Shown: positions 3,087 through 30,530 of the stretch, in pieces | Layout of the letters: every line of letters begins with the position of its first letter | Position numbering within the stretch: the stretch's first letter is position 1 | Assembly (NCBI GenBank): GCA_965203805.1 | Contig: OZ241917.1 | Span: forward strand, 5,184,001-5,248,000 | Origin: Candidatus Latescibacterota bacterium | GTDB taxonomy: Bacteria; Latescibacterota; UBA2968; GCA-2709665 | Direction of reading: 5' to 3' | DNA: 64,000 bases | Notes under the pieces: generated by a model | Database searches by the model: none | Told to the model about the DNA's origin: nothing | What the model saw: only the letters and a program-made list of their open reading frames with translations | Position numbers and translations under genes: made by a program

Positions 3087-3135
3087 GTGCTCATAGGGAA
3101 TCGATCTCAGTTCAACTGTGGAGAGGAGACCGCCT

Positions 3136-5159: not shown

Positions 5160-5260
5160 ACACCCCAAGAACACCTTTAGCCGCTCCCTGAGCGTTTCAA
5201 TTTTCTTCAATTCACATTACCAAATTATCAGGATCTCCCAACCGAGTTCGCGAAGATGTT
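5160..5260 (-). pseudogene. Very-short-patch repair (Vsr) endonuclease C-terminal remnant
   Basis: Reads LRELGWEILIIW*CELKKIETLRERLKVFLG, i.e. the Vsr C-terminal GW..L.IWECE motif with E replaced by a stop codon. Confidence 0.6.
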
Positions 5261-11533: not shown

Positions 11534-12154
11534 CTGTTAGAGTTATCAAGCGACTGATTTATTACACAACGCAGTCTCCGATCTCCCCTCAAAGTTGTGT
11601 GATGGGATGGATGTTTTTCGTTTTTCTCTTGTATCGTTGGTCGTGAAAACCTACCACGCGTATAAGTTAATTTTTTTTGTGGAAAAATAATGAGCCAAGG
11701 TCAAATTTGTAAACTTTGTGGGTGTGTCAGTAAACTTCAAAACTCTCATATATTGCCAGAGTTTCTATATAAATACTGTTATGATCCGATGCACCGGGCG
11801 ATCAAATTTAATACTCAGGAAATATCACGAATCATCGTACAAAAGGGAATTCGCGAACCTCTGTTATGTGTGAAGTGTGAGCGACATTTGAGCAAGATTG
11901 AGGGACGTTTTAAAACTGATTGGTATGATCGGGGTCGGTTGCCGGTACAATTTACGAAAGAATATTGGAGATTAGAAGGGTTTGATTATACTATGTTTAA
12001 GTTGTTTCATTTAAGCGTTCTTTGGCGTTGTTCGGTATCTAAAAACAAAGCATTCGCTACTGTTAGTTTAGGGCCTCACGAGCGACGCATCGCTCAACTG
12101 ATTCTCAGTGAAAATGCTGGCGAAGAACATGAGTATTCGATTATTGGCCAGCTT

Positions 12155-13319: not shown

Positions 13320-13819
13320 TCCACAATGATGCTATTGTTCACAGTCTTGTATCTCCGGCGTTTAGGCTTAGATTAGACGGTTTGCATGTATATCTATTGG
13401 CTTACGGAGGCTGTGAGTGGTTCCTCCATGTTTCACGACATAATAAGACCGAAGTTAAAGAATTAGGGTTTGGAAAAGACGGAAGTCTAATTCTTATACG
13501 ACAGTCGTTCTTAGAATCAATTACTGCAAGGCTTATGGATGTAGAATTGCGGACAAAAGCAGGTCAGGATTTCGTGCAGGCGTATAAGAAACTAAGGAAG
13601 AAGTATGAGTGTCTCGAATCACAATAGTTGAGTTTTAAATACTGATGATATTATCGCAGAACTGCAAATGGACTACATCGGTCTTGCGGCGAGAATAATC
13701 GACGTCCCTTTGTCCGGTGCAGTTACAAGTATGGCTTCTGACGGACTACTACTTGTAGAAGATTCAGTTACCGGAACTTAGTGCCAAACAATCCGCCACA
13801 TATCGCGGCCGAGAGACAG

Positions 13820-14020
13820 ATGAACATCGCGACCAGTTTTCCGGACGGTTGGGACGAGAAACGTGTCCGCCGGCTCTTGGACCATTATGAATCACAGACC
13901 GAGGACGAGGCAGTGGCGGAAGACGATGGGGTACTGGAAGACAAAACACAAACGCTGATGGCAATTCCCAATGCGTTGGTTCCGGCCGTGAAGGCGCTTC
14001 TTTCGCGACACGCCAGATGA
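13820..14020 (+). CDS. Small acidic conserved hypothetical protein, antitoxin-like
   Basis: FPDGWDEKRVRRLLDHYESQTEDEAVAED pattern, which I recall from small TA-associated proteins; ATG at 13820. Confidence 0.55.
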   Translation: MNIATSFPDGWDEKRVRRLLDHYESQTEDEAVAEDDGVLEDKTQTLMAIPNALVPAVKALLSRHAR

Positions 14021-14750
14021 ACCCTTGGCTTGCTCGCGACCCTGGCGTATCCCACCCATCAACTCCCCGCACCATCCGACAACCGCTCTTTGTATCTGAT
14101 TAAATCCTTGCGAGTTATGGCCTCCGGCGGCACCAATTGGTATTGTCTCTCCGAGACGATTCGGATGTCGTCTCCATCCGTCTCGAATTCCAGCAGGGCA
14201 ATCACATTCTCACGCAAGATTTGTGCGCCTATGGGTCGGCAAATCAGGTCCGGCAATTTGTCGGCACAAAGCGCGATGTCCTGCTCGATCTGAATTCTGT
14301 TCAGTCTATCGCTGCCGCCCTTTGCCTGGACGGGTATCACATAGTGCGAGCCGCTCTTGTCGACACCCACGTAGATTTCGTCGGTCTCGACCTGACCCAT
14401 ATTTGGCACTGTCGTTCGGAGATGGTTCTGTAACGAATAGCACGCGATGCCAAGGAAGATGTCAATCAGGCGATTGTATCGAACCCGGGCCAAAACCGCC
14501 TGTTCATCATTGAACGCATATTTTGCGATGATTCCCGGAGTAGAGTCCGGCACCTTTGTCACCGAAAGATTCGGATTGGGCGTGAGCGGTATGTCGCTTA
14601 CCAATACAAACCTGTATTTGCCAGTTCCGGCAGGCCGAATAATCCATGTTTCGCCATCGGGTGCCTTGTCAAGAATACTCCTTGGAAGCGTCCTCCTGTA
14701 GCGAAACGTGTAGATCAAGTCACCCAGATTCTTCGGCAAGTCAACGTTGA

Positions 14751-16569
14751 GTCCACTCCGAAAAGTCGCATTTACTTATGCTGGTGAAAGTACTAAATTC
14801 GAAGTGTGAAAAGTCAGCAAGGATGAAGTATTGAGAATTACAATTGTAGAGAGCGTGGGAGAGGACAGATGTATAAGCCGAGTGCGTCGTGCAGTCAACC
14901 GGATCTGTTTTCGAATTTCGAGTCGCATTTCACACAGCGGAAGCAGGCGCAGTTGAATGATCCGAAGTCGTGGCATAATCTGTTTTACCAGCACATCACG
15001 TCAGAGATCGACGAGGATGTGTTTTCCGTGTTGTTTGATCCCGACATAGGCCGTCCCAATGCCCCGATTCGTCAGTTGGCGGCGATGATGGTCTTGAAGG
15101 AGGGCTTCGGGTGGAGCGATGCACAACTGTTCGAGCAATGTCGGTTCAATATCCTGGCGATGCGGGCATTGGGGTTGATGAATCTGTCTGATGAGGCGCC
15201 TGTGGAGTCGACGTATTATCTGTTCAAACAGTCCTTGTATGCGTATCAACTGAAAACCGGTCGGGATCTGGTTGGCGAGACCTTTAGCAGCTTAACGAAG
15301 ACGCAGGCCGACGCCTTTGGTGTGCTGGGTCAGCAAATCCGAATGGACAGTAAGTTAATCGGCTCGAACATTGCGCTATGTTGTCGGTTGCAGTTGGTGG
15401 TGGGTTGTTTACAACGGTTCTGGGGATCGTTGGACGAGGCCCGGAAGCGGCGATTATCAGGAAAACACCGGCAGGTTCTGGACGGAATGCTCAAGGTGAA
15501 GCCCCATCAGGTTGTCTACCGTCTCACCCGTGCTGAAAAAGGTGAGAAGCTACAGGAATACGGTGTGTTATTGAGCAGGCTTCAAGCGATCTATACCGAG
15601 AAAGACAGCGATCACTATGGTGTGATGGCGCGTGTTTTTGGAGACCAGTATTCGGTTTTATCCTCCTCCAAACAGGTGCTTCCCAAGCCGCCTGATGAGA
15701 TCTCCGCATCCTCCTTGCAGTCCCCCGATGACGAAGATGCGGCCTTTCGTAAGAAAGGGGAAGCGAAGGTGAAAGGATACAGTGTGAACCTCACCGAGAC
15801 CTGCGGTGAGGAGGGCCTCAATTTGATCACGGACATTGACGTCAAATCCGCGACAGCGCCCGACAACGCGTTTGTGCAAGCGGCCGTAGGGCGCACACAG
15901 CACGTGGTAGGGCAGGTTCGAGACGTGTCGATGGATGGGGCCTATAATGATCAATCCAACGCCGAGTACGCAAACGAACACGACAAGCAATTCTATTACA
16001 GTGGCCTGCAAGGAACCCCAGGGCGTTTCATTTATCGACGAACAAGAGAAGGCGTCGAAGTCATGGATCGAAATACCCAAGCCGTGCAGCTTGCCCAAGA
16101 ATACAAACCGGGGAAATACAAACTCATCATGGATGGCAAACCCCGATACTTTAAAGAACAGGCCATCGACAACTACATCAAACGCAAACAGAGTGAAGCC
16201 CTGCCTGAACACATCAGAAACCGACGCAATAACGTCGAAGCCAGCCTCTTCCAGTTGAGCTATTACACCCGAAACGGCAAAACTCGCTATCGTGGATTGA
16301 TGCCACATCAGCTGTGGGCGCACTGTCGTGGCTTATGGGTCAATCTCGTTCGGATCCAGAATTACCTCACCTCACCCACGATGCTCCCCGCATAAGATGC
16401 GACTTTTTTATGCATATCCTTGCCCCAAAACCACGCGAGCAACCTCGTAAACCGCCTCTGTGTTGATGGGCCGCAACCCGATGCACTTTCACCACGCAAC
16501 GCGACCTCTCAATACACAACACTGACACCTACACACGAAATCTTCCTGAACCCCCTTCTCGGAGGGGAC
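14751..16569 (+). mobile_element. IS1182/IS5-like (DDE) insertion sequence
   Basis: TIRs GTCCACTCCGAAAAG / GTCCCCTCCGAGAAG. 10-bp TSD TCAACGTTGA at 14741-14750 and 16570-16579. Confidence 0.9.
14869..16395 (+). CDS. DDE transposase (IS1182/IS5-like)
   Basis: GRPNAP..WSD (DUF772-like), RMDSKLI, SPDDEDA, DGAY and RNNVEA motifs. Confidence 0.88.
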   Translation: MYKPSASCSQPDLFSNFESHFTQRKQAQLNDPKSWHNLFYQHITSEIDEDVFSVLFDPDIGRPNAPIRQLAAMMVLKEGFGWSDAQLFEQCRFNILAMRALGLMNLSDEAPVESTYYLFKQSLYAYQLKTGRDLVGETFSSLTKTQADAFGVLGQQIRMDSKLIGSNIALCCRLQLVVGCLQRFWGSLDEARKRRLSGKHRQVLDGMLKVKPHQVVYRLTRAEKGEKLQEYGVLLSRLQAIYTEKDSDHYGVMARVFGDQYSVLSSSKQVLPKPPDEISASSLQSPDDEDAAFRKKGEAKVKGYSVNLTETCGEEGLNLITDIDVKSATAPDNAFVQAAVGRTQHVVGQVRDVSMDGAYNDQSNAEYANEHDKQFYYSGLQGTPGRFIYRRTREGVEVMDRNTQAVQLAQEYKPGKYKLIMDGKPRYFKEQAIDNYIKRKQSEALPEHIRNRRNNVEASLFQLSYYTRNGKTRYRGLMPHQLWAHCRGLWVNLVRIQNYLTSPTMLPA

Positions 16570-16717
16570 TCAACGTTGAGTTCAGAGGCAAACGTAACGA
16601 TGTCCTGCCTAACAAAATTAACTTCACGTTGGCCCGATTGAAACCCGGCTTGGAAAATCGCTTCTATGATGGCGGAATAGCGATCAGTCGTGGAAATGTC
16701 GTGCTCCTCTCCAATAG

Positions 16718-18022
16718 TCAACGGCCGGGCCATTCGAGTGTCACGACTTCCTCCCTGAGCTGTTCCCCGGTTACCGTGGAAAGTCGGGTTCGAAAGAGAT
16801 CGATGCCGGTAACAGTATAGCCCAGGGATTTGGCGACACCGGCCAACAGTTCGCCGGTTCGGATCATGACCCGTAGATAGGATGCCTGATCACCCACCAC
16901 ATAGGCGAGCTTGGCACCGGGTCTGAGTGCCGGCCGCAATGACGCGAGATGCTTCGCCATCCCCCCGAAGTACAGGAGTGTGACACGCGAATACTGCCGC
17001 TCGAAACCTGATGTCTTGCCCATTGCAATGCGTCGATTCTCAATCTCATTCGCAAGTCTGCGTATTTCTATATTGTCCGCGATTTCGCTGTCGTCGGTAT
17101 CAGCTTTGTACACACCGCGAGTGTTCGACCTGACCAGGTTCTGCTTCAGCATCCTCAGTTCGTGTCGGTTCTTTATGAGGCCAAGGACGACGGATTCCAG
17201 GCGTGTCGTTCTCGTGTAGTCCTTCTCGTTGGGATACGGCGGAGAAGTAATCACAACGTCGACGGAGCCCGGTTCAAGGATGCCTTCCACGCTGCGAGCG
17301 TCGGCATTAATGATGTGACTGGCCGTGCTTGCCAGACCAACGTAACGGTGAACGTCCCTGACAGCAGTCCGTATACATTCAAGCCAGGCGTCCACGACCG
17401 GTGCATCGTATTTGATCTTCCCGACCCCGACCTCCGGCCCGAACTTCAGATTGCTGATACGGTGTACCAGTGCATTGGCAAGGCAAAGGCGACCGTAACG
17501 CTGTAACTGACGATTACCGTGCCGGTCGATAGCGTCCAAGAGTACGAGCGCCTTGTGGAGAGGGCGGGGGCTGATCGAATCCTTTAAAAGTATATGCGAT
17601 CGCTCAGCAGGCAGCTCCTTAAGCGTGGCCGTCGGATTTCCATTTGCAGCGAACAGTGGAAGATCCTTCCATTCGTCCAATCCCTGTTCTTTCAGCGTCT
17701 TCTTCGTGGACTGCGCAACCTTTTCCGCGTAGTCGAGCAACGCTTCGTGGCATACACCCCAGTCGACCTTCACCGAACTTGCGAAATACGCCATCGGATT
17801 CGGCTCGATCCCGATGCTGCCAATGCCGAGTTTCTTGCACTCAACGGTCGTGGTCCCGGTCCCGCAGAATGGATCCAGCACGGTGTGAGAAGGTCGCACG
17901 TCGAACCGGTCAAGATACTTGCGGACCAGATGAGGAGGGTACGACAGGACAAACCGGTACCAGTCATGAACTTCCCGGTCTTCCGGCCGCAGCTTGTTCA
18001 ATTCCTTCATCTTCGTAGCCAT
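16718..18022 (-). CDS. DNA methyltransferase, alpha-order N4-cytosine type
   Basis: Motif I LDPFCGTGTT is N-terminal and catalytic TSPPY is downstream. Confidence 0.88.
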   Translation of the reverse strand: MATKMKELNKLRPEDREVHDWYRFVLSYPPHLVRKYLDRFDVRPSHTVLDPFCGTGTTTVECKKLGIGSIGIEPNPMAYFASSVKVDWGVCHEALLDYAEKVAQSTKKTLKEQGLDEWKDLPLFAANGNPTATLKELPAERSHILLKDSISPRPLHKALVLLDAIDRHGNRQLQRYGRLCLANALVHRISNLKFGPEVGVGKIKYDAPVVDAWLECIRTAVRDVHRYVGLASTASHIINADARSVEGILEPGSVDVVITSPPYPNEKDYTRTTRLESVVLGLIKNRHELRMLKQNLVRSNTRGVYKADTDDSEIADNIEIRRLANEIENRRIAMGKTSGFERQYSRVTLLYFGGMAKHLASLRPALRPGAKLAYVVGDQASYLRVMIRTGELLAGVAKSLGYTVTGIDLFRTRLSTVTGEQLREEVVTLEWPGR

Positions 18023-18476: not shown

Positions 18477-20111
18477 ATGCGGTCCATATCAGAGTTTCTG
18501 AGCGGCAAGACGCTGTTTGTGACGGGCGCAACGGGGTTTCTGGCGAAGGGATTCGTGGAGAAGATCCTGTTTTCGTCCCCTGAAGTGGCGCGGATCTATC
18601 TCCTGATCCGCCCCCGGTTGCGTTCCAACGGAAGACTGGTTTCTGAAACGGAACGGCTGGAGACCGAAGTTCTTCAGTCTCGCGCGTTCGGGAGGCTTCG
18701 AGAGAAGTGGGGCGCGGCGTTTCCGTCGGTGATGGCCGAGAAGATCCAGCCGGTTGCCGGCGATCTGACCGAAGACGGACTGGGGATTGCCTCCGGCCAG
18801 CACGAGCGTCTTGTTGACGAAGTCGATTTCGTCGTCAACTTTGCGGGTACCGTGGTCTTCGACGAGCCCATCGACAGCGCGCTCGAGCAGAACACGATGG
18901 GCGCCGCGCGGGTCGTGGCTTTCGCGAAGGCCTGCCGGCAAGCCGCGCTCGTACACGTGTCGACGGCGTACGTGAGCGGACAGCGGACCGGGCGGATTCA
19001 GGAAACCCCTTTTCCCCAGGACCGGAGCGTAACGGACCTCATCAACGGAAGCGCGGCCGGATTCGACCTTCAGGGCGAGATTGACGCCATTCGGTCCTTT
19101 GCGAAGAAGGTGAGGGAGGCGTCCAATGAGCCCGAATTGGAGGCGGCATTCCTGAAGCAGCTCCGGCGCAAGGACCGCGGCAAACGCGTGACCGACTACC
19201 GGAAGGCGCACCAGGTCGAGGCCCTCCGCCAGCGCTGGATCCGGAAGCAACTGGTGGATGAAGGGATGCGGCGGGCCAGGCGCTTCGGATGGAACGACAG
19301 CTATACGCTCACGAAGGCGATGGGTGAGCAGTTGATCGTAAAGTCGCACGGCGATCTGCCAATGGCCATCGTCCGGCCGGCGATCGTGGAAAGCAGCCTC
19401 GAGGACCCGGAGCCGGGATGGGTCGAAGACCTGAAAGTCGCCGATCCGCTGATCGTCCACTACGGCAAGGGCCGGCTGTCGAATTTTCCGATCGATCCCG
19501 GAATCGTCCTGGACATTGTACCCGTGGATGTGCTGAACAACGCCGTCGCGGCGGTACTCCCGCAGGTACACGGGTCGCATGAGATGAAGGTCTACCACGT
19601 GGCGTCGGGCTCGCAGAATCCGGTGCGTGCGAGTGAAGTGGTGGAACACGTTTACGGGTACTTCAAGACCTCGCCCTTACGCGACCGGAAAGGGCAGCCC
19701 ATCGAAGTCCGGCCCTGGCAGTTCATCGGCAGACGGCGGTTCTCATGGATTGTCCTTCTGAAATACAAGCTTCCGCTGCGCTTCCTGAAGGCGGCCGTAG
19801 ACTATTTGCCAACCCGGTGGGTTTCCCGTTACAGGCGCCGGGTGATGGCTTTGGAAGCCATACTGGTCAGGCTCGAGTCCCTGCTCGACATTTATTGCGG
19901 GTACACCCATCTGGACTGTGAATTCGAGACGGAGAATACGCGCCGGTTGTTCCAGGGGCTGAATCCTGAGGACCAGAGGGTGTTCAATTTCGACGTGACG
20001 CGCATCAACTGGCGGGAATACTTCCAGGAGATCCACATTCCGGGATTGAAACACCACGTGTTGAAAGAAGGGGACGGGGCGGTTTCCACGCTGACCGCCG
20101 GGGCCGATTGA
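18477..20111 (+). CDS. far: Fatty acyl-CoA reductase (fatty-alcohol forming; NAD_binding_4 + Sterile domain)
   Basis: TGATGFLAK, HVSTAYV, YTLTKAMGE, IVRPAIV, DIVPVD and C-terminal FNFDVTRINW...HIPGL. Confidence 0.92.
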   Translation: MRSISEFLSGKTLFVTGATGFLAKGFVEKILFSSPEVARIYLLIRPRLRSNGRLVSETERLETEVLQSRAFGRLREKWGAAFPSVMAEKIQPVAGDLTEDGLGIASGQHERLVDEVDFVVNFAGTVVFDEPIDSALEQNTMGAARVVAFAKACRQAALVHVSTAYVSGQRTGRIQETPFPQDRSVTDLINGSAAGFDLQGEIDAIRSFAKKVREASNEPELEAAFLKQLRRKDRGKRVTDYRKAHQVEALRQRWIRKQLVDEGMRRARRFGWNDSYTLTKAMGEQLIVKSHGDLPMAIVRPAIVESSLEDPEPGWVEDLKVADPLIVHYGKGRLSNFPIDPGIVLDIVPVDVLNNAVAAVLPQVHGSHEMKVYHVASGSQNPVRASEVVEHVYGYFKTSPLRDRKGQPIEVRPWQFIGRRRFSWIVLLKYKLPLRFLKAAVDYLPTRWVSRYRRRVMALEAILVRLESLLDIYCGYTHLDCEFETENTRRLFQGLNPEDQRVFNFDVTRINWREYFQEIHIPGLKHHVLKEGDGAVSTLTAGAD

Positions 20112-20132
20112 CCGGCTTGCGGGTTTTTACGA

Positions 20133-22073
20133 ATGAATCGAAACATTAAAGCGCCCGTGCACAGAATGTTGTTGCAGGATCCTGCCCGTCTGGTGGCCGC
20201 TTACGATCAGGCGGCCTCGGAACTGATCGTCGCCGTTCAGCCCGAAGGCTATTTCAAGGGGTGGACGGCCGAGGATCTGGCGTGGCCGGCCGGCGGCGCC
20301 GACGACGTCGGCCTCGAGGGTCTGCGCAAACGGGCGCGGATTGTGGACGCGATCTGCCGGGGTGTACCCGGTCTGCGGGACAACCGGCTGAAGGAGGCGC
20401 ACGACCATTTCGTCGAACTGACGCCGGCTTACCACGAAGGGAACCGGATCTACCTTCGGCTTCGGGATGAATTCATTGAAGCGGGCGCCGGAACAGGCCC
20501 GGACTTTCTGAAACTGTATCAGTCCCTCTACGTGGAGGCGCTCGCAAAAGGAGATGATTTCTCGCCCGACCCGGCAGAAACCGCACTGGCGCGAGCCCGG
20601 ATCTCCCGGGTACCGCTGTCGCACGCCAGGGCGGTTGCGGAAGCGCTGCCCAGCGTGACCACGGACGACGATCCGCGCTGGAGTGTGGAATACGCCTGCA
20701 CGGTGAGTGGCGAGACCTGGAGCGGAACCCTCCGGGAACTCCTGGAAGACGTGGCGCAGCGGACCCTGCACTACATCGCGGCCGGAGAGCTTCTCGCCAC
20801 GCGCTACAACACCTACAATAACCTGGGCTGGTTCGGCAGTTCGGTGTGGAAGGTAGTCGCGGAAGCCGATGTGCGCCTGTATCGGATGGAGGGATCGGAT
20901 CCCGCGCGCTCGGAGATGCTGAAGGCCGACGTAGACCTGGCACGCGGCATGCTCGTGGAGTTCCTGGCGGCGCACCGGGAGGATCCCGCCCGGCTCAGGC
21001 CGGAGAACTACTGGTACGGGCAGCCGTACAGCTATCTGACGCGGGACATGATCGACCTGAGCGTCCGGATCGCGGACGGCTTGAATTCGGCGGCAAGGGA
21101 ACTGGACGGGGTGACCGAAATGGCACTCCCGCCCCTGCTGGCGGGCGCCCGCACGGGCCGGTTTCTGGACTACGCCCACGTGGGCGTGACCGAGGAACAG
21201 ACGTCATTCCAGAGGAAAATCAGGATGTTGCGCTGGGCGAGACGGTGCTGGCGGGTGGGGAAACGCAGGCGCCGGATCGCGGAGGAGGACCTCACGCCGT
21301 CCCAGAGGCACGAACGCGCGTGGGAGGTCTGGCTGGATTGGTCCCGGGACACAATGAAAGCATTCGGCATCCGGCTGGACGTCACAATCGCCCCGATGTT
21401 CCGGACACTCGTCCGGGAAATGGACCTTGCGGCCGGCGGCCGGCGGATCCTGTTCCTGCCCTCGCACCAGAGCATGCTCGAGCATTTCGTGGTGTTTTCC
21501 GTATTCAACGATCCGGTCTTTCTGGATGCGATGGGTTGGGATCGGTCCCGGCCTGTCGTACAACTCGCCCGAACGGGCCTGGCGAAGTCAACGTCGGTGA
21601 AGATCGGGTCCCGAGAAATCAGTATCTTCGGGATGTCTCCGGACAGGTTCGACCGGATGTTCGAGACCGTCGACGGTTTCATCACCCGGGACAGCGTGGA
21701 CATCTCTTCGCATACGATTCCGCGAATCCTGCAGGAGATGGAGCGGCGTCCGGGTGTGATTTATCCGATGGGCACGACGGCTTCCTTCGACGTGCAGTTG
21801 TTCCCGCTGCAACACGCGCTTTTCGCGAAACTGCCCCAGGACGTCGTGATGGTCCCGATCGTGTTTCGGGGCAGCCATGCGCTATGGCCCAAGTGTCCGG
21901 CGCGCAATCTGAATATCAATCCCGGCGTGATCGAGGCGGTGATCCTGCCCCCGATGCCGGGTGAGACCACGCTGCTGCCGCGCCGCCGGTCCCTGCGCAT
22001 CCAGCTGGAGGCCGCCAATCTGCTTCAGGCGGTGCATATTTCGAATCTGCTGAATCCGGAACCCTCGCGATGA
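20133..22073 (+). CDS. Atypical glycerolipid acyltransferase (C-terminal PlsC-like domain, uncharacterised N-terminal domain); putative DHAP acyltransferase
   Basis: PSHQSMLEH (HxxxxD variant), GFITRD, IYPMGT (FPEGT variant), VPIVFRG. Located between far and agps. Confidence 0.65.
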   Translation: MNRNIKAPVHRMLLQDPARLVAAYDQAASELIVAVQPEGYFKGWTAEDLAWPAGGADDVGLEGLRKRARIVDAICRGVPGLRDNRLKEAHDHFVELTPAYHEGNRIYLRLRDEFIEAGAGTGPDFLKLYQSLYVEALAKGDDFSPDPAETALARARISRVPLSHARAVAEALPSVTTDDDPRWSVEYACTVSGETWSGTLRELLEDVAQRTLHYIAAGELLATRYNTYNNLGWFGSSVWKVVAEADVRLYRMEGSDPARSEMLKADVDLARGMLVEFLAAHREDPARLRPENYWYGQPYSYLTRDMIDLSVRIADGLNSAARELDGVTEMALPPLLAGARTGRFLDYAHVGVTEEQTSFQRKIRMLRWARRCWRVGKRRRRIAEEDLTPSQRHERAWEVWLDWSRDTMKAFGIRLDVTIAPMFRTLVREMDLAAGGRRILFLPSHQSMLEHFVVFSVFNDPVFLDAMGWDRSRPVVQLARTGLAKSTSVKIGSREISIFGMSPDRFDRMFETVDGFITRDSVDISSHTIPRILQEMERRPGVIYPMGTTASFDVQLFPLQHALFAKLPQDVVMVPIVFRGSHALWPKCPARNLNINPGVIEAVILPPMPGETTLLPRRRSLRIQLEAANLLQAVHISNLLNPEPSR

Positions 22074-22113
22074 GAAACCGGATCCGGCCGATTGTTGTCA
22101 TCGGGAGTACGTA

Positions 22114-23961
22114 ATGCCTGAGTGGGGAATCGCAGCGGTTGTCGCCGCGACAATTCTGCTGATCGCGCTTCTGCCCAGACGGAGGGGCGCCGGAAGCGAA
22201 CCGGACGAATTCTTCGATCATTCCGAAGCGGAACGGTTTCCCCACAAGTGGGGATACACGGACACGCGGTTCGAGTTTGTGGACGATCGCACGCTGAAGG
22301 TGACCGGCAACAGGTACCCCATCTCGGGATACCGCATGCCGTTTCTGATCGACTTTGTGGAGGACGTGCTGGGCATTGCGATCCGGAAGGAAGACGCGTT
22401 TGCCGAGCGCGACGAAATTGAAGCGACGGAACCGAACGTGGACGCGGCGTTCGGGAACGCGGTGAAGGAGCGGTTCGGAGACGGGCAGGTTTCCTTGGAT
22501 CCGCAAGCCAGGCTGGTGCACAGCCACGGACAGCTGAGCGTGGAGGAAGTGTATCGCGTGATGTATGGCGATTCGCTACCCAGGCTGGTCGACCTGGTGT
22601 TCTATCCCGAAGAGGAGGCCGACGTCAAGGCCATGATCGACCTCGCCAACGAGCATAACGTGTGCCTGGTGCCCTATGGCGGCGGGACGAACGTGAGCGG
22701 TGCGCTGGCGTGTCCGGCCGACGAGCGGCGCACGATCGTTTCGGTGGATATGCGCCGGATGGACCGGGTGATGTGGATTGACGAGGCCAATCTTCAGGCC
22801 GGCGTCGAGGCGGGGATTTCGGGCAAGGCGATGGAGAGAGCGCTTGGAGAGCGGGGGTACACCTCGGGACACGATCCCGATAGCGTGGAATTGTCCACCA
22901 TGGGCGGCTGGATCTCGACCAATGCGAGCGGGATGAAGAAGAACCGGTACGGCAATATCGAAGACATCGTGCTCGAAGCGACGCTGGTGACGCCTACCGG
23001 CGAAATCGCAACCCGCCAGGTCACGCCCAGAAACTCCACGGGCGTCCAGCCGCGGGGTCTGCTGTTCGGAAGCGAAGGCAATTTCGGTATTATCACCACG
23101 GCGGTGATCAAGATTCATCCGATCCCCGAGGCGCGCAAGTACGGGGCGCTCGTCTTCCCTGCTTTCGAGAAGGGCGTTTCTTATCTGAAGGCGCTCCGGC
23201 AGACCGGCATGCTGCCCGCGAGCATCCGCCTGGTCAACAACAACGAATTCCGGTTCGGACAGGCCCTGAAAGGGGAACCGACGTTCCTGAAAGGCGTCAA
23301 GGAAAAGGTTCAGAAATTCGTCCTGTTGAAGGTGATGGGTTTCGATCCGATGAAGATGGGCGCGTGTACCATCGTGATGGAGGGCACGCATGACGAAGTG
23401 CGCCAGCAGGAACGCACGATCTTCAGCCTGGCGAAGAAATACGGCGCCAAGAGCGCGGGCGCCAGCAACGGCAAGCGAGGCTATTCGCTGACGTTCGGCA
23501 TCGCCTACATTCGTGATTTCCTGAATCAATACGGCATCCTGGGCGAAACCTTCGAGACGTCTGTTCCCTGGGACCGGATCCACCAGGTTTGCGATGCGGT
23601 ATCGAAGGAACTGGTGACGCAGGCCACGATGCACAACGTGCCGGGGAAACCCTATCTCTCGTACCGGGTGACCCAGACCTACCATACGGGCGTCTGTATC
23701 TATTTCACCATGGGCATTTACGGCAAGGGCCTGGAAGCGCCGGGCCGGACGTTTCACGTGATCGAACACCGGCTTCGGCAGGTGATCCTGGACAACGGAG
23801 GGTCTTTGTCGCACCACCACGGCGTTGGAAAGGTAAGAAAGGACTTCCTGCCGCAGATTCAGAGCGATAACAGTATCCAGGTCATGCGTCAGGCCAAGAA
23901 CGCGATGGATCCGAACAACATCTTCGGGATCAGAAATGGTGTTTTCGGGGAGATTGAGTGA
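22114..23961 (+). CDS. agps: Alkyldihydroxyacetonephosphate synthase (FAD-linked)
   Basis: PYGGGTNVS, GHDPDSVELSTMGGWISTNASGMKKNRYGNIEDIV, GSEGNFG, FETSVPW, RVTQTYHTGVCIYF and LSHHHGVGK. N-terminal hydrophobic anchor. Confidence 0.9.
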   Translation: MPEWGIAAVVAATILLIALLPRRRGAGSEPDEFFDHSEAERFPHKWGYTDTRFEFVDDRTLKVTGNRYPISGYRMPFLIDFVEDVLGIAIRKEDAFAERDEIEATEPNVDAAFGNAVKERFGDGQVSLDPQARLVHSHGQLSVEEVYRVMYGDSLPRLVDLVFYPEEEADVKAMIDLANEHNVCLVPYGGGTNVSGALACPADERRTIVSVDMRRMDRVMWIDEANLQAGVEAGISGKAMERALGERGYTSGHDPDSVELSTMGGWISTNASGMKKNRYGNIEDIVLEATLVTPTGEIATRQVTPRNSTGVQPRGLLFGSEGNFGIITTAVIKIHPIPEARKYGALVFPAFEKGVSYLKALRQTGMLPASIRLVNNNEFRFGQALKGEPTFLKGVKEKVQKFVLLKVMGFDPMKMGACTIVMEGTHDEVRQQERTIFSLAKKYGAKSAGASNGKRGYSLTFGIAYIRDFLNQYGILGETFETSVPWDRIHQVCDAVSKELVTQATMHNVPGKPYLSYRVTQTYHTGVCIYFTMGIYGKGLEAPGRTFHVIEHRLRQVILDNGGSLSHHHGVGKVRKDFLPQIQSDNSIQVMRQAKNAMDPNNIFGIRNGVFGEIE

Positions 23962-24036
23962 CGGCTGATGGGCCTCTCGAGGTGGGGGCGCCCGGCCGGT
24001 CGCCCCGACAATGCCGAATCGCAGGGAAGGCAAATC

Positions 24037-24843
24037 ATGTTCAACGGTAAAGTGGTCGCGATAACCGGGGCGTCGTCGGGTCTGGGCGCAACGCTGGCTC
24101 TGGCGTTCGCGGAGGAAGGGGCGGACCTGGCCCTTTTCGCCCTGGACGACGGCGTCCACGAAACGGCGGCTGACTGCAGGGAGCGCGGCAGCCGCGTGAC
24201 CACGGAAACGGGTGACGTCGGAAATCCGGCGGACTGCGAGGCCTGGATCGACGCCGCGGTATCCGGACTGGGAGGCGTGGACTACCTGGTTGCCTGCGCG
24301 GGAATCAGCATGTGGGCGCGGTTCGACGAGGTGGAGGACCTGACGATTTTTCGCAGGTTGATGGAAACGAACTATCTGGGCATCGTGCATTGCGTATACT
24401 ACGCATTGCCCCACTTAAAGGCGCGCGACGGGATGGTGGTGGCGATTTCCTCCATCCAGGGCAAGATCGGCGTGCCCCTGCATACGGGTTACGTGGCGTC
24501 CAAGCACGCCGTTCAGGGCTTCTTCGAGTCGCTGCGGACGGAACTTCTGGACACGGGCGTGGACGTGCTGACGGTACTGCCCCACTGGCTGCGCGGGACC
24601 AATCTGCGCAAGGCGGCTTTCGGAAAGGATGGCGGGGCTCTCGGCGGGTCGAGCCGCAAGCACAGCAGGGAGTCGATATCCCTGGACGACGCAAGCACGG
24701 CCATCATCGAAGCGATGAAGAAGAGGAAGCGGGAACTGATCATCCCGTTCAAGCTGAGATTTCTGCCCTGGCTGCACCTGATCAATCCGAAGATCGTCGA
24801 ATATCTGGTCACGCGCGGGGTGGCGAAACAGGAAAAAGGGTAG
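24037..24843 (+). CDS. SDR oxidoreductase, DHRS7B/PexRAP-like; putative acyl/alkyl-DHAP reductase
   Basis: TGASSGLG, METNYLG, VAISSIQGK and YVASKHA motifs. Confidence 0.8.
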   Translation: MFNGKVVAITGASSGLGATLALAFAEEGADLALFALDDGVHETAADCRERGSRVTTETGDVGNPADCEAWIDAAVSGLGGVDYLVACAGISMWARFDEVEDLTIFRRLMETNYLGIVHCVYYALPHLKARDGMVVAISSIQGKIGVPLHTGYVASKHAVQGFFESLRTELLDTGVDVLTVLPHWLRGTNLRKAAFGKDGGALGGSSRKHSRESISLDDASTAIIEAMKKRKRELIIPFKLRFLPWLHLINPKIVEYLVTRGVAKQEKG

Positions 24844-24882: not shown

Positions 24883-25572
24883 TCAGGAAAAGACCCCGTC
24901 CACATCCAGGTGTTCTTCAATCAGTTCGGGCATGCGTCCGAGATGCCCGGCATCCACGTCCACGCCCGGATCGAATGGCACGATGCCCAGTGACGCGGCC
25001 CCGGTCAGGCGCGTGACCACCTCCGGACTGCTGCGGGCGGCCCTCGGGTCGCCGGGTCCGGTCGTATTGTAGACGACGCCCCGAATTTCCAGGTTGCGCG
25101 TCTTCGCGGCCTCGAGCGTGAGCATCGTGTGGTTGATGGCGCCCAGCGCGGCACGCGCGACCAACAGCAGTGGCAGGTCAAGACGGTCGGCGAGGTCCGC
25201 GACCAGGAAGTCATCACGGATCGGAACCAGCAGGCCGCCCACACCCTCGACCAGTACGGTTTCATGCAGGCGGATCAGGCGGTTAAACGCATCCACGATG
25301 GGTTCCAGCGGAACCCGGCGGCCCTCCAGTTCGGCGGCCACGTTCGGCGACAACGGCGCGGCGAGCCGGACGGGATTGACGAGTTCGAGCCCATCTGAGA
25401 CGCCCGCCGCCTTCACCAGGAATCGCGCATCCGCCGCGCCGCCCGACGACACGGGCTTGAACACACCCACGTCCACGCCGCGTCCCCGAAGAACGGCGGC
25501 AATTCCGGCGGTCACGGCGGTTTTGCCCGCGCCGGTGTCCGTGGCGGTAACGAAGACTCCCCTGGATTGCAT
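24883..25572 (-). CDS. bioD: Dethiobiotin synthase
   Basis: TATDTGAGKT, FKPVSSG, VEGVGGLLVP, LGAINHT. Confidence 0.95.
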   Translation of the reverse strand: MQSRGVFVTATDTGAGKTAVTAGIAAVLRGRGVDVGVFKPVSSGGAADARFLVKAAGVSDGLELVNPVRLAAPLSPNVAAELEGRRVPLEPIVDAFNRLIRLHETVLVEGVGGLLVPIRDDFLVADLADRLDLPLLLVARAALGAINHTMLTLEAAKTRNLEIRGVVYNTTGPGDPRAARSSPEVVTRLTGAASLGIVPFDPGVDVDAGHLGRMPELIEEHLDVDGVFS

Positions 25573-25592
25573 GGTCGTATTGCCCCCGGAAG

Positions 25593-26963
25593 TCAGGCCG
25601 CGTTCGTCACGGCGCGGATGGACTCGCAGGCGATATCCAGCAGCTCTTCGAGATCGCGGTCGGAAATGGCCAGGGGCGGCATGAGGACAATCGTGTCTCC
25701 CAGCGGGCGGATGAGCAGACCCCGTTTCCGGGCCTCGCCGCAGACGCGGTTGCCGACTCTCTCCGACGTCGGATACGGCCGTCCGCCAGCGCTGTCGGCA
25801 ACCAGTTCGATGCCGGCGATGAAACCGCACCGGCGAACGTCCCCCACATGCGGGAGGGTCCTGAAGCGCTTGAGTCCGCGAGCGAGACGCTCGATCCTGG
25901 GTTGCAGCGACGCCAGTACGTTGCGGCTCTCGAATCGTTCGATGGCTGCCAGCGCCGCGGCGCAGCCGAGCGGATTGCCTGTATACGTGTGGCCGTGGAA
26001 GAACGTCTTGCCTTCGCTGTCTTCGCCCAGAAACGCATCGAAGATCCCGCCGGTGGTCAGCGTGGCGGCCACAGGCAGGTATCCGCCCGTGAGTCCCTTG
26101 CCCAGGCAGAGAATGTCGGGCGCGACCCCTTCTTTCTCGCAGGCGAACATGGCGCCGGTGCGACCGAAGCCGGTGGCGATCTCGTCGGCGATGAGCAGCA
26201 CGTCGTGCGCCCTGCAGAGGTCGGCGACTCCCTTCAGATAGCCCTCGGGATGGACCAGCATCCCACCGGCGCCCTGGATCAGCGGCTCAATGATGAAGGC
26301 GGCGATGCGGTGGGCGTTTTGTTTCAGGATTTCTTCGACCGCCCTCAAACAGCCCTGGTTGCACGCGCTTGCGCGGGCGCAGAACGCGCAGCGATACGGA
26401 TGGGGCGACGGCGCATTCAGCGACGGAAAGAGGAGCGGGCCGTACGCCTTGTGGAAAGTGTCGATATTCCCAACGCTCATGGCGCCGACGGTGTCGCCGT
26501 GATAGCTCCGCTCGAGGCTCAGAAAGCTGGTCTTGCCGGGTCGCGGGTCCGGTCTCTGCCGCCAGTACTGGAAGGCGATCTTGAGCGCGATCTCAACGGC
26601 GCAGGCGCCCGTGTCCGAATAGAACACGTGGTCCAGACCATCCGGTGTGATCGCCACCAGTTTTTCGGCCAGCCGGATCGCGGGTACGTTGGAAAGGCCC
26701 AGCAGCGTGCTGTGCGCTACCTGGTCCAGTTGTTCGCGGATGGCGGTGTCGATTTCCCCGGCGCGGTGGCCGTGTACGTTGCACCACATCGAGGAGTATC
26801 CGTCCAGATACCGGTTACCGTCGATGTCCTCCAGATAGACGCCGTCCGCACGAGCGATGACGATGGGGTCTTCGCTCGCATACGTGCGCATCTGGGTGAA
26901 CGGGTGCCACACGAGGCGCCGGTCGAGGTCTTTCAGGCGGGCCTTGTCGTCCGGGGACATCAT
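25593..26963 (-). CDS. bioA: Adenosylmethionine-8-amino-7-oxononanoate aminotransferase
   Basis: [52 protein letters not shown]. Confidence 0.95.
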
Positions 26964-27003
26964 CGTATGGATGGGGATTCGGTACGGGCGGCGAATGGTC
27001 TGG

Positions 27004-27939
27004 TTACCGCCTGCTTGCGCCGATGCTCTCAAGGATGTCAATGGGCATTTTGCAGACCATGGTGTACGCGGGGTCGTAGACGTTGCCCACGTCGTACTCC
27101 ACGGCCTGGCCCATGAGGATGTGTATGGACCGGGTATCCAGGCCGTAGTCTTCCTGGAGGAACCGGATCAATTCGGTGGTGGCGTGTTGGGTTGCCTGGT
27201 CCAGCGGGCGGGCGTTGCCCACGGCCATCACGTGGGTTTCGTTGATCGCCCTGGGCCAGTGGATGGTTTTGCCCTTCAGCAGGCGCAGCGTAAAGGTGAC
27301 GTCGAAGGAGATTTCGATGCCCGTGCCCGCGATTTCGCCGTCGCCCTGAACCGCGTGGCCGTCGCCGATGTGGAACAGCCCGCCCTCGACGAAGACGGGG
27401 AAGTACACGGTGACGCCCTGGACGAATTCCCGGTAGTCCATGTTGCCGCCGTGGGTATCGGATGTGGCGGTGGAGATGGCTTGGCCGCGGGGCGGCGCCA
27501 CGCCGAAGCAGCCCACCATCGGCTTCAGAGGGATCCGGAGCCTGCCGATGGGGAGGTCATCGAAGCCGATGGGCGTGGCCGTGTTGTTGTCGAAGTCGAT
27601 TTCCCAATCCAGGAGGCGGCCGCGGTCGTCGTCGAATTCGGGCGTGTACCCGAAATCCAGCACGTTGGCGGCGACAATGCCCGACGTGTATCCGACGTTG
27701 CGGTTGGGCGCCAGTTTGTCGAAGGTTACGGCCAGCGTATCGCCCGGTTCCGCGCCCTCGAGGTAGAAGGGTCCGGTCTGGGGATTGCCCGCCGGCGTGA
27801 TCGGTTGGCCCGAGGCGTCGCTTCCGCCGGCGTCGACGGTGGTGGTTGAGATGGTGTCGCCGCTGGCGACGTGCAGCACCGGGTCGTGCGCGCCCATGGC
27901 AGTGTGATAGGTTTCAGGGACGAATTGGTGGTGGGCCAT
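27004..27939 (-). CDS. Acetamidase/formamidase family protein
   Basis: NPQTGPFY, HGGNMD, GDGHAVQGDGEIAGTGIE. Confidence 0.9.
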   Translation of the reverse strand: MAHHQFVPETYHTAMGAHDPVLHVASGDTISTTTVDAGGSDASGQPITPAGNPQTGPFYLEGAEPGDTLAVTFDKLAPNRNVGYTSGIVAANVLDFGYTPEFDDDRGRLLDWEIDFDNNTATPIGFDDLPIGRLRIPLKPMVGCFGVAPPRGQAISTATSDTHGGNMDYREFVQGVTVYFPVFVEGGLFHIGDGHAVQGDGEIAGTGIEISFDVTFTLRLLKGKTIHWPRAINETHVMAVGNARPLDQATQHATTELIRFLQEDYGLDTRSIHILMGQAVEYDVGNVYDPAYTMVCKMPIDILESIGASRR

Positions 27940-28030
27940 GGATACTCCTCTTAAGAAAGTACGGGTGCGAGAGCGGGGCGATCGACGGTTCCCGGGGCCC
28001 GCTGGAGGGCGCCCGGTTTCGGTGGTCTCG

Positions 28031-28954
28031 TTACTGGGGAACCGCAATCATGCGGATGTTCGAGGGCGCTTTCCACGCTGATGTCCAGGAAAGGCCTCGA
28101 TCCTGGCTGCCGAACAGGGTATCGCCAACTGCCGACCAGGCGCGGCCGTCGGGCGTGAAGCCAATGTGAAAGGTGTCGATGTTGCCCGCTGTGGTTTCGG
28201 GAAAGCCGTCGGTGACGTGCGACCAGTCGCGCCCGCCGTTATCGGTACGGTAGAGCTGACCCTGGGCGTCTCCGTGGGGCCCCGTGCTGACCGAGGCAAG
28301 AAGGCATTCCGGTTCGTCAGGGTGCACGGCGATGGCCCTGCCGTAGAAATAGGGAAAGCCGTCGGACCGGTGCAGCCAGGATCTCCCGCGGTCGTTGCTG
28401 AGGTAAACGGCACGGGCCGTGTTTGCGTACACCCGTTCGTCTTCCATGGACGACGTGGCAACCTGATGCACGTCCTGGTGCAGGTCCGGCGTGACGGGTT
28501 CCCAGGTGCGGCCCCGGTCGGGCGAACGCATGATGCTGCCCACGTGGATGTCGGCGTAGACCCAGCCGTCCCGTGTGGAGGCCATGCTGCGGACGGCCGC
28601 GGGGCCGCCCCATGGCGTGTACCAGTCGTCGCGGCATTCGAGGGCGTCGAAGGCGTCAAGACGCTCGGTCCCGCCGTCCGTCACGGCGTAAATGTGGGGA
28701 GCCTCCACGCCAACGAGGAAGCGCAGCGGTTCTTCTTCCAGAATGAGAAGGCATTCGATGGGGTCATCAATGCCGGTGGCGAGGGTTCGGGCGCCGGTTT
28801 GCGAAAGCACGGCGACCGCCCCGTCATCCCGGGCCGCCAGGCCGTGGGACCGCCCTTCCGCAATCGCCTGGACGTGGCCGCCATTCAGTACGGCCTGCGG
28901 TTCGGCCTGTTTCCCGTTCAGGGAATATACGGTGTCGCGGGTGGCGATTAACAT
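28031..28954 (-). CDS. BNR/Asp-box beta-propeller protein
   Basis: Repeated S-x-D-x-G-x-(T/S)-W boxes (SPDRGRTW, SNDRGRSW, TDNGGRDW, SQDRGLSW). Confidence 0.8.
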   Translation of the reverse strand: MLIATRDTVYSLNGKQAEPQAVLNGGHVQAIAEGRSHGLAARDDGAVAVLSQTGARTLATGIDDPIECLLILEEEPLRFLVGVEAPHIYAVTDGGTERLDAFDALECRDDWYTPWGGPAAVRSMASTRDGWVYADIHVGSIMRSPDRGRTWEPVTPDLHQDVHQVATSSMEDERVYANTARAVYLSNDRGRSWLHRSDGFPYFYGRAIAVHPDEPECLLASVSTGPHGDAQGQLYRTDNGGRDWSHVTDGFPETTAGNIDTFHIGFTPDGRAWSAVGDTLFGSQDRGLSWTSAWKAPSNIRMIAVPQ

Positions 28955-29011
28955 AGGTACTCCTCTCAAGTGTCCTGTCCCAAAAATACCTCACCATTCT
29001 TCCGCCGATTC

Positions 29012-29189
29012 ATCCCGTCTCGCAGCGTTGCCTTCGCTCGCCGACCTGGCCAGGTCGCCTGCGCTCTGGCGCTGGGTCCAGAGCCTGTCGAAGGATGCGA
29101 GCCGGGCGACTCGACGGCCGAATTCAGGCAACTTATTTCCGGGACAGAACACCAGCAACGGATCGGCCGGCCGCCGTCCGCGACGGGAT
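29012..29189. repeat. Nested intergenic hairpin / REP-like element
   Basis: Outer ATCCCGTC(T)CGC / GCGACGGGAT stem, perfect palindrome CGACCTGGCCAGGTCG (29042-29057) and GAGCCTGTCGAAG motif. Confidence 0.5.
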
Positions 29190-29216
29190 TTCATGGTCTG
29201 GCTGCGAGGCAGGGCC

Positions 29217-30281
29217 TCAAAAGTAGCGGACGTCCCGGCCGCCGTCCGGCAACGGCAGGTCGACCGCCCGGTGTTCGTCCGCGGCGCGATTCCAGGCCAG
29301 GCAGAGTTCCAGCACGTTGCGGGCGTGTTCCGGGGTCACGTCGAGAGGATGACTGTCGCGGACGGAGCGGACGAAGCGTTCGACCGCGGCGTCGATGGTG
29401 TCGTTCTGAGCGCGGTAGAACACGCGGGGAGCGCCGTCGTCGTCTTTGTGCCAGACAATGCCTTCCATCACATCCAGATGCGCACGGGCAACACCATCGG
29501 TGCCGACCACTTCCATCTCCCATGCCGGGGCGCCGCAGGAAACGTTGAAGATGATGTCCATGGATCCCATTCGCCCGTCTTCGAACCGGACGGTGCCCTT
29601 GCCGGTATCCATCCAGATGCTGTGAGGCGTGGCCAGGTTGTCGTATTCGGCATAGGCGCGCACGGCGGGTGAATCGATGAGCCAGAGTAGCAGGTCCGCG
29701 GCGTAGACGCCCAGAGAAAGCCCGATGCCGCCCTGTCCGGGGCCGAATTCACCGCTGCCTTCGAAAACCGTTCCCGGTCCGAAGCAGCCGTGTTGAATCC
29801 ATGCCCTCGACGAGATGACGCGTCCGACAGCCCCGTCCCGCACCCGGGTGGCCATCGCGCGGATGGCGCCGTCTTCCCGTCCGGGCAGCAGGGCGGACAG
29901 CAGCACGTTGTTTCGGCGGGCCGCGGCGACCATGGCGTCCGCGCCATCGAGGGTCATACACATCGGTTTGCTGATAAAGGCGTGGGCGCCCGCGTCCGCC
30001 GCGCTGGCTGCGTGCCGCGGCTTCAGCCTGTCCTCGCACGTCACGAAAACGAGGTCGAGCGACTCGGCGCGGACCATCTCCGGCACGGAGGCATACGCCC
30101 GGATGCCGTATTGGGCGCCGAACCCCTCCCTGGACCGCATGCCGAGTCTGCCGAGGGTTTCGTCGCTCTGGTCCAGATGCGCGAACGCCGCCAGGTCGAT
30201 GTCCGGATTTCGCATCGCGGTCCGGGCAAACGCGTTCGAATAGTAGGATCCGATGCCGCACACGCCGGCTCTAAGCGCCAT
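29217..30281 (-). CDS. Gfo/Idh/MocA family oxidoreductase
   Basis: N-terminal Rossmann fold GVCGIG and SKPM (EKP variant). Confidence 0.85.
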   Translation of the reverse strand: MALRAGVCGIGSYYSNAFARTAMRNPDIDLAAFAHLDQSDETLGRLGMRSREGFGAQYGIRAYASVPEMVRAESLDLVFVTCEDRLKPRHAASAADAGAHAFISKPMCMTLDGADAMVAAARRNNVLLSALLPGREDGAIRAMATRVRDGAVGRVISSRAWIQHGCFGPGTVFEGSGEFGPGQGGIGLSLGVYAADLLLWLIDSPAVRAYAEYDNLATPHSIWMDTGKGTVRFEDGRMGSMDIIFNVSCGAPAWEMEVVGTDGVARAHLDVMEGIVWHKDDDGAPRVFYRAQNDTIDAAVERFVRSVRDSHPLDVTPEHARNVLELCLAWNRAADEHRAVDLPLPDGGRDVRYF

Positions 30282-30530
30282 GGGTACGATCTCCCCGTTC
30301 CTGGTGACGAGCGGCGCCGAATCGCGGATCAACCCGCCGGTCGTCCCGTCCGTGACCGCACATCCACACGGCCGTTCGCGCGGGTATTCACGTTAAAATC
30401 AGCGGTATTGTCAAGCGCAATCGTTCACGCATGCGGTCTGGCGCGGGCGCGTGCCGCACCTGAATGGGACGGCGCCATGCTGTCGGGAAATGAAGGAGTT
30501 CCGTCCGGTAAACCGGTGACAGGAGGCTGA

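Follow-up and report, generated by a model that had tools for sequence, protein, structure and literature searches.

In the canonical bacterial route to glycerolipids, dihydroxyacetone phosphate (DHAP) is reduced to glycerol 3-phosphate (G3P) by GpsA, and sn-1 acylation by PlsX/PlsY or PlsB follows. The peroxisomal ether-lipid pathway of eukaryotes uses FAR1, GNPAT, AGPS and DHRS7B/PexRAP. A bacterial operon of related content, MXAN_1676-1675-1674 of Myxococcus xanthus, is described in two reports as coding for an AGPS, a FAR-acyltransferase and an NAD-reductase, and deletion of MXAN_1676 lowered the ether-lipid content slightly (PMC9131029; PMC13012113). Here we analyze a 64,000-nucleotide stretch, called the window below, from the genome of a sponge-associated Candidatus Latescibacterota bacterium (assembly GCA_965203805.1, contig OZ241917.1, positions 5,184,001 to 5,248,000 of the forward strand). 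It carries four co-directional open reading frames (ORFs) on the + strand, at 18477-24843, for an alcohol-forming fatty acyl reductase (FAR), a 646-residue protein of an undescribed family (X646), an AGPS and a classical short-chain dehydrogenase/reductase (SDR). The host genome is a single contig of 5.87 Mb that is 99.81% complete.

We propose that the cluster is an operon for a DHAP-first glycerolipid route with 1-O-alkyl-glycerol-3-phosphate as its product, and that this lineage probably starts its membrane glycerolipids mainly or solely in this way, a reading to which we give roughly two chances in three. FAR would supply fatty alcohol by reducing an activated fatty acid, and X646 would acylate DHAP at sn-1, filling the role of GNPAT without being GNPAT. 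AGPS would then put the alcohol in the place of the acyl chain, creating the ether bond with no need for O2, after which the SDR would reduce alkyl-DHAP, and probably acyl-DHAP as well, at the keto group to give the sn-glycerol-3-phosphate backbone. This backbone would be acylated at sn-2 by the single PlsC of the host genome. The route would take the place of GpsA and PlsX/PlsY in this lineage. The proposal builds on gene identities, on the predicted fold and a motif of X646, on synteny and on the phyletic pattern; from these we infer all substrates and the order of the steps.

The M. xanthus operon resembles this cluster in being bacterial and in combining the same four activities (AGPS, FAR, acyltransferase and NAD-dependent oxidoreductase). 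The Latescibacterota cluster differs in consisting of four separate genes in pathway order. X646 is neither PF01553/GNPAT-like by sequence nor fused to FAR, and its reductase belongs to the classical SDRs instead of the extended epimerase type. The M. xanthus route is also minor next to ElbD and exists alongside ordinary lipid synthesis, whereas in the four Latescibacterota families f1 to f4, which include the host, GpsA, PlsY and PlsX were not found (PlsX exceeded its cut-off in 1/97 genomes). With the eukaryotic pathway, the cluster shares the proposed chemistry and step order, an AGPS that is a clear homologue (E = 4.7e-150 to guinea-pig AGPS) and a FAR with the same two Pfam domains. In contrast, X646 is not GNPAT by sequence, and its acyltransferase domain is C-terminal, behind a helical domain of 355 residues. 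The bacterium has no organelle, and its AGPS opens with a hydrophobic segment, unlike animal AGPS, whose N terminus bears a peroxisomal targeting signal.

Matches to agps have been reported in Latescibacterota metagenome-assembled genomes (MAGs), both from the Black Sea, with 67 of 92 MAGs (PMC11868695), and from sponges (bioRxiv 10.64898/2026.06.23.733905), and AGPS sequences have been described as lacking phylogenetic signal (PMC13012113). A bacterial AGPS/FAR/acyltransferase/reductase operon and the presence of agps in Latescibacterota are already known. Other phyla rich in AGPS are Poribacteria, Marinisomatota and Gemmatimonadota. The original prediction, drawn from the DNA letters of the window, had located the novelty in the complete four-step operon and its unusual acyltransferase; with an M. 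xanthus operon of the same activities on record, the claim for a complete four-step operon was an overstatement. What appears to be new is the unfused four-gene cluster in pathway order, X646 in the place of GNPAT and the apparent replacement of GpsA/PlsX/PlsY. In the part of the literature covered, which consisted of texts without supplements, nothing was found that describes this four-gene cluster, X646 and its family, or a lack of GpsA/PlsX/PlsY.

The FAR, SDR and AGPS genes

The original prediction had described four tightly spaced co-directional genes, and the ORFs do lie as it placed them, with intergenic gaps of 21, 40 and 6 nucleotides (coordinates in Table 1). The last gap becomes 75 nucleotides with the later SDR start that it had given, position 24037, which corresponds to Met24 of the ORF. 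We consider this start the likelier one, because the matches in relatives mostly begin at residues 21 to 25 of the ORF. The sequence strings that it had quoted are readable in the translations, namely SGMKKNRYGNIED, PASIRL, RVTQTY and SHHHGVGK in AGPS, and METNYLG, VAISSIQGK and ASKHAVQGFF in the SDR.

The FAR assignment was confirmed by two Pfam domains in succession, NAD_binding_4 (PF07993; E = 4.7e-63, 213.2 bits) and Sterile (PF03015; E = 9.7e-16, 58.2 bits). A genome-wide search found one strong FAR in the host genome (214.6 bits), the runner-up scoring 45.7 bits. The FAR-bearing frames of family f3 and of other relatives, of about 1230 to 1470 residues, resemble the ElbD-type enzymes of myxobacteria in joining FAR to AMP-binding and PF01553 or HAD domains. 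The host genome differs in having no such fusion: its FAR open frame measures 572 residues, and its sole PF01553 gene is a PlsC of 247 residues. The separation of the cluster from the ElbD route, asserted from the letters alone, holds on these grounds. So does its separation from the PlsA/Ger route, since the host genome gave no match to a PlsA/Ger-type gene (PF09989) in a search whose control was positive. As a side observation, the FAR matches in genomes of genus g4 include 11 with one in-frame TAG inside the match; this may be an alignment running past the stop codon, or something else.

The SDR matches adh_short (PF00106; E = 1.2e-42) and NF004825 (279.9 bits, the cut-off being 215), and its translation contains TGASSGLG and SS...YVASK, which correspond to the TGxxxGxG motif and the Ser-Tyr-Lys triad of classical SDRs. 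Its best solved relatives are clavulanate dehydrogenase and 11-beta-HSD1, and its nearest ESM Atlas clusters are all bacterial; the kinship with DHRS7B to which the quoted strings had pointed is a putative one. The Asp that follows the second strand, in FALDDG, hints at NADH as the cofactor.

The third protein aligns with guinea-pig AGPS (PDB 4bby) from residue 44 to residue 608, on chain residues 94 to 656, with 504 bits, and with Dictyostelium AGPS (2uuu) with 282 bits (E = 1.3e-82). The best structure of another FAD oxidase reaches 92 bits, such oxidases having E values of 2.5e-25 or weaker. The Pfam domains, FAD_binding_4 (PF01565; E = 7.4e-38) and FAD-oxidase_C (PF02913; E = 6.2e-36), make up a VAO-type architecture. 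In the 4bby alignment, the protein keeps the equivalents of guinea-pig R419 (PASIRL), T568 (RVTQTY), Y578 (CIYF) and H615-617 (SHHHGVGK), residues that we take to be catalytic or disease-linked. The 120 homologues among the matches listed are all bacterial and 60 to 94% identical. On sequence comparison, the third gene is an AGPS, as the original prediction had it, and not a lactate or glycolate oxidase, the outcome that would have refuted that prediction; acyl/alkyl exchange is its predicted activity.

The alternative that this protein is another FAD-linked oxidase, acting on glycolate or D-lactate, and that the cluster is unrelated to ether lipids is scarcely credible. It could invoke NCBIfam, which returns GlcD-type models only, all far under their cut-offs, and the label "FAD-binding oxidoreductase" that several relatives carry in other source annotations. 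Yet the resemblance to solved AGPS extends from end to end and is far above the 92 bits at most obtained with other FAD oxidases, the protein keeps the HHH loop, Tyr and Arg that are specific to AGPS, and JGI names several relatives alkyldihydroxyacetonephosphate synthase.

The N terminus of AGPS (residues 1 to 25) consists of a hydrophobic segment followed by RRRG and may thus serve to anchor the protein in the membrane; the alignments with relatives do not begin before residues 7 to 30. Two variants of the AGPS family were noted in passing. A divergent form, 45 to 46% identical, occurs in genera g18 and g21 (genomes G072 and G093 and locus L029), and the g18/g21 genomes that have it lack an SDR orthologue at E<=1e-55. 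In addition, P0130, a protein of 1060 residues that is 67% identical to this AGPS, combines AGPS with aminotransferase domains (PF00155, PF01212, PF01053), either through a fusion or through an error of gene calling.

X646 is a predicted acyltransferase outside known sequence families

X646 matched nothing in a Pfam scan up to E = 10, PF01553 included, in an NCBIfam scan at 0.1 or in a phmmer search of PDB at E = 10. It belongs to a close-knit family whose members have about 626 to 685 residues and are nearly all unnamed or labelled "hypothetical". When 1.84 billion cluster representatives were searched with a profile, 66 matched at E<=1e-3, and these were the family itself and fragments of it. 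Because none of these is longer than 665 residues and all belong to the family, no FAR fusion of X646 and no bridge to other families was found among those representatives. Met12 may be the true start of X646, as the copy in the database has 635 residues.

The AlphaFold2 model, built with 23 family members, has a pLDDT of 87.8 and a pTM of 0.90. In a VIA-align comparison, residues 356 to 646 of this predicted model superpose on Thermotoga maritima PlsC (5kym) with a Z score of 15.7 and an rmsd of 3.6 over 232/241 aligned positions, at 11% identity, and the match includes the two N-terminal helices. The next-best rows have Z scores of 9.1 or less, with GPATs among them (plant and algal GPATs at Z 8.5 to 9.1). 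The top Foldseek matches are PlsC and plant GPATs with a probability of 1.00, and an ESM Atlas feature search, which we treat as a lead, returned PF01553 clusters in 23/30 matches. Residues 1 to 355, folded alone, give a helical model (pLDDT 85.9). Compared with 48,161 chains, its best matches are designed helical proteins, with Z scores of 8.9 (a de novo helical barrel) and 8.4, and for helical bundles a Z near 8.9 falls within the range that the tool calls uninformative.

X646 also carries an HX4D-type motif. In alignment A1, His445 is invariant, and the acidic site is Asp in 18/23 sequences and Glu in 5/23, this X646 being among the latter (H445-QSML-E450). Motif III, which is FPEGTR in PlsC, reads YPxGTT. 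X646 thus resembles PlsC and the GPAT-LPLAT superfamily in the predicted fold of its C-terminal part and in this motif. It differs from them in its low identity, in the lack of a PF01553 match, in the additional N-terminal domain and in the outcome of hhalign, which aligned the X646 family with the host genome's own PlsC at a probability of 0.28%. Because of the Pfam and hhalign results, we do not file X646 as a member of PF01553. It is an acyltransferase according to a predicted fold and a short motif, not according to sequence family. It is also not a member of GNPAT by sequence, and may work like GNPAT. The earlier designation "acyltransferase-domain protein" therefore stands as regards the predicted fold and the HX4D/E motif, but not as regards the sequence families of Pfam, NCBIfam and PDB.

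Since by far the best fold match is PlsC, an sn-2 lysophosphatidate acyltransferase, down to the two-helix motif, X646 might instead be an AGPAT-like enzyme that acylates 1-O-alkyl-G3P at sn-2, with DHAP acylated by some unrecognised enzyme. We consider this quite unlikely. The fold cannot separate sn-1 from sn-2 enzymes, plant GPATs being among the matches too, and a canonical PlsC with housekeeping genes as neighbours is already present in the host. Moreover, sn-1 acylation would be left with no candidate, as no PlsY, PlsX or PlsB-size PF01553 gene was found in the host genome.

Gene order is conserved in relatives

A scan of a genome collection gave 158 confirmed X646 loci, and we counted the neighbours of X646 in the best 80 of them, nearly all of which are labelled Latescibacterota. 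FAR lies directly upstream of X646 in 52/80 loci, AGPS downstream in 44/80 and the SDR in 39/80. The complete set, ordered as in the window, is found in 39/80 loci. Such recurrence shows that the arrangement is not due to chance, and it bears out the conserved synteny that the original prediction had proposed to look for. The SDR is present in 39/44 AGPS-bearing loci, and in four of the five that lack it a contig end interrupts the locus. In the remaining 28/80 loci, X646 is 41 to 46% identical, and none of the three neighbours lies within 7 kb.

Eight FAR-positive loci have no AGPS. Three of them are cut by a contig end, and the other five (L025, L028, L039, L051 and L080) have full flanks with neither AGPS nor SDR within 7 kb. 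These five loci and the genome of L025, which has no AGPS anywhere, would suit the idea that the products of FAR and X646 are wax esters or similar neutral alkyl esters, formed with fatty alcohol as the acyl acceptor, FAR plus an acyltransferase being the standard wax-ester recipe, with AGPS-SDR as a separate adjacent module. This is very unlikely to be the function of the pair. X646 is universal, and was found once per genome, in a clade where canonical sn-1 machinery was not found, which fits a core membrane role better, and in family f3 it adjoins no FAR. Furthermore, the wax synthases known from bacteria have a different fold, that of the WS/DGAT family.

Five genomes with an AGPS-less X646 locus were checked, four from the 28 loci without neighbours and that of L025, which keeps FAR. 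Two of them have an AGPS elsewhere (64 to 66% identical) with the SDR directly after it. In two checked genomes, the FAR-bearing frames combine FAR with AMP-binding and HAD domains (1231 residues) or with AMP-binding and PF01553 domains (1440 residues). Such ElbD-like FAR fusions coexist with X646 in the relatives G047 (the same as G002) and G001 (L091:6383-10078 and L092:4247-8569). A third partner upstream of AGPS was considered in two genomes of split architecture and rejected, as the unannotated ORFs found there are unrelated to each other.

The cluster and the canonical genes have complementary distributions

Seven queries were run on one set of 121 genomes from the phylum, each with a completeness of 85% or more. 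Of these, 97, including the host genome, belong to families f1 to f4 and 24 to families f5 to f13. X646 was found in 97/97 f1-f4 genomes and 2/24 of the others, FAR in 96/97 and 3/24, AGPS in 92/97 and 1/24, and the SDR, at a cut-off of E<=1e-55, in 89/97 and 0/24. Conversely, PlsY and GpsA (PF07479) were each found in 0/97 f1-f4 genomes and 21/24 of the others. PlsX was found in 22/24 of the latter and in 2/97 f1-f4 genomes, one of these matches being over the cut-off, in a genome with 7% contamination. In nearly all genomes with GpsA and PlsY, the two genes share a contig and are separated by about 1 kb, and the controls were positive. X646 was found once per genome in f1 to f4, with two pieces on two contigs in the fragmented assembly G085, and it is present in 93/93 AGPS-positive genomes. 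In f1, f2 and f4, FAR is free-standing and adjoins X646; in f3, it lies elsewhere, mostly inside frames of about 1400 residues. The FAR-X646 pair is present in G008, where AGPS, PlsY and GpsA were not found.

One genome of family f8, G024, has both systems: PlsY, GpsA and PlsX, and also FAR, X646 and AGPS together on a small contig, C112. The cluster copy could reflect a transfer, a binning artefact or a transitional state.

The sole PF01553 gene of the host genome, for the PlsC-like protein of 247 residues, lies beside cmk and rpsA, and on this basis no canonical sn-1 acyltransferase is left there. A search for PEDS1/CarF (PF10520) gave no match in the host genome, but its control was silent as well, which makes it uninformative on plasmalogens.

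Because families f1 to f4 carry the cluster and have no candidates for GpsA/PlsX/PlsY, it looks like core rather than accessory lipid metabolism. The original prediction of an ether-lipid pathway is upheld in its gene identities and synteny, and widened, as the comparative data suggest a stand-in for GpsA/PlsX/PlsY. A bolder version of our proposal would be that the whole class-level Latescibacterota clade has abandoned the passage from GpsA to PlsX/PlsY/PlsB, that all its backbones are acylated first as DHAP and reduced later, as in peroxisomes, that X646 founds a new sn-1 family and that alkyl ethers are the default, perhaps dominant, lipids of the membrane. We hold this version tentatively, as somewhat short of an even bet.

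Arguments for and against a DHAP-first route

Several observations weigh against the proposed route. Six of the 99 X646-positive genomes of the sample have no AGPS match (one of them at a contig end), and 3/5 checked genomes, that of L025 included, lack AGPS anywhere. Because X646 occurs without AGPS, it is independent of it and need not use DHAP. Eight of the 97 f1-f4 genomes lack both the SDR (at E<=1e-55) and GpsA and would therefore need another reductase. One genome, G020, lacks X646, PlsY, GpsA and PlsX alike, so that a further solution must exist, possibly its FAR-containing frame of 1449 residues. As kin are not independent, very few events of gain or loss may lie behind the phyletic pattern. 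The host genome is a MAG with 9.32% contamination, and a single transcript for the four genes was not seen, no RNA contig joining two of them. As regards X646, the acidic residue of the motif is Glu450 instead of Asp, the hhalign probability with the host's PlsC is negligible, and what marks it as an acyltransferase is a modelled structure together with a short motif. More generally, the pathway functions of all four proteins are predictions from comparison and a model.

The presence of a glycerol kinase in the host genome (675.8 bits) likewise counts against the DHAP-first route, as it makes G3P from glycerol possible. X646 could therefore be a general sn-1 G3P acyltransferase that replaces PlsB/PlsY, with the acyl-DHAP for AGPS coming from a side activity or another enzyme and with X646 placed beside FAR/AGPS through shared lipid regulation. 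Its occurrence once per genome in 97/97 genomes without PlsY, and also in genomes without AGPS, would agree with this view, as would the supply of G3P through GlpK and the fact that its closest fold match, PlsC, acts on a glycerol-3-phosphate derivative. We nevertheless regard a G3P acyltransferase as unlikely, although less so than the other alternatives. With GpsA in 0/97 genomes against 21/24 of the others, de novo G3P synthesis would need outside glycerol. AGPS needs acyl-DHAP, and the only other acyltransferase candidate in the genome is the small PlsC. Finally, the tracking of AGPS by the SDR makes sense only if there is a keto intermediate to reduce. Our preference for DHAP as the acceptor of X646 follows from the AGPS context and from GpsA not having been found.

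If the DHAP-first route is true, it represents a bacterial exception to the near-universal acylation of G3P by PlsB or PlsX/PlsY, makes acyl-DHAP synthesis part of core bacterial metabolism in a large uncultured clade and describes a bacterial lineage with a "peroxisome-like" core of membrane synthesis. For X646, it provides a name and a testable function for a family without annotation. The cluster is a candidate bacterial source of the 1-O-alkylglycerol ether lipids of sponges and marine sediments, and it sharpens gene-based surveys of ether lipids, which so far score agps and elbD only. As a non-myxobacterial, unfused form of the pathway, it adds to the debate on the origin of eukaryotic ether-lipid synthesis.

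Expression, occurrence and genomic surroundings

Metatranscriptome contigs from three libraries of two studies match pieces of all four genes with 90 to 99% identity. Because none of these contigs bridges two genes and no silent stretch served as a control, they are a weak hint that the cluster is expressed. A scan of the cluster for promoters and terminators gave scores equal to those of shuffled sequences. In a run labelled as sponge metagenome, one DNA contig covers the whole cluster with 63 differences in 6601 bases; the public runs containing this DNA, from seven studies, mostly bear sponge or marine metagenome labels.

Table 1. Positions in the window of the four-gene cluster, its parts and the features around it
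Feature	Position	Strand	Basis or remark
FAR, alcohol-forming fatty acyl reductase, 544 aa	18477-20111	+	PF07993 + PF03015
X646, 646 aa, undescribed family, proposed sn-1 (DHAP) acyltransferase	20133-22073	+	Predicted fold and motif; start uncertain
X646 N-terminal helical domain, residues 1-355	20133-21197	+	Separate fold prediction
X646 PlsC-like acyltransferase domain (predicted), residues 356-646, with two leading helices	21198-22073	+	VIA-align, Foldseek
X646 motif H445-Q-S-M-L-E450, HX4E variant of HX4D-type catalytic motif	21465-21482	+	Alignment A1
AGPS, alkyl-DHAP (alkylglycerone phosphate) synthase, 615 aa	22114-23961	+	4bby alignment, Pfam
AGPS N-terminal hydrophobic segment and RRRG	22114-22190	+	
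Classical SDR, proposed acyl/alkyl-DHAP reductase, 291-aa ORF	23968-24843	+	PF00106; likely start 24037
BioD-like gene, convergent, 3' of the cluster	24883-25830		Pfam scan
DNA methylase gene, divergent, upstream of the cluster across a 454-nt gap	16718-18022	-	
GmrSD-type restriction enzyme	1009-2967	-	
DDE_3 transposase	3118-4203		
HSDR_N protein	5783-6946		
DDE_3 transposase	6987-8075		
Type ISP specificity-domain protein	8078-10336		
DDE_3 transposase	12231-13319		
DUF772 transposase	14869-16395		
Overlapping ORFs of 246-422 aa, 3' of the cluster	25848-30530		No Pfam match
Protein of 925 aa	43710-46487	-	No Pfam match
Patatin-like phospholipase, 785 aa	46491-48848	-	

The part of the window beside the cluster, from 1 to 18022, has a low GC content of about 0.50, against 0.58 to 0.66 downstream, and contains many defence and mobile genes. 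Two of its three DDE_3 transposases, those at 6987-8075 and 12231-13319, have equal Pfam scores and are probably identical insertion sequence copies. On the other side, GC is high over the overlapping ORFs 3' of the cluster, and gene calls there are uncertain. The patatin-like phospholipase and its neighbour of 925 residues may both be lipid-related; they lie outside the finding reported here.

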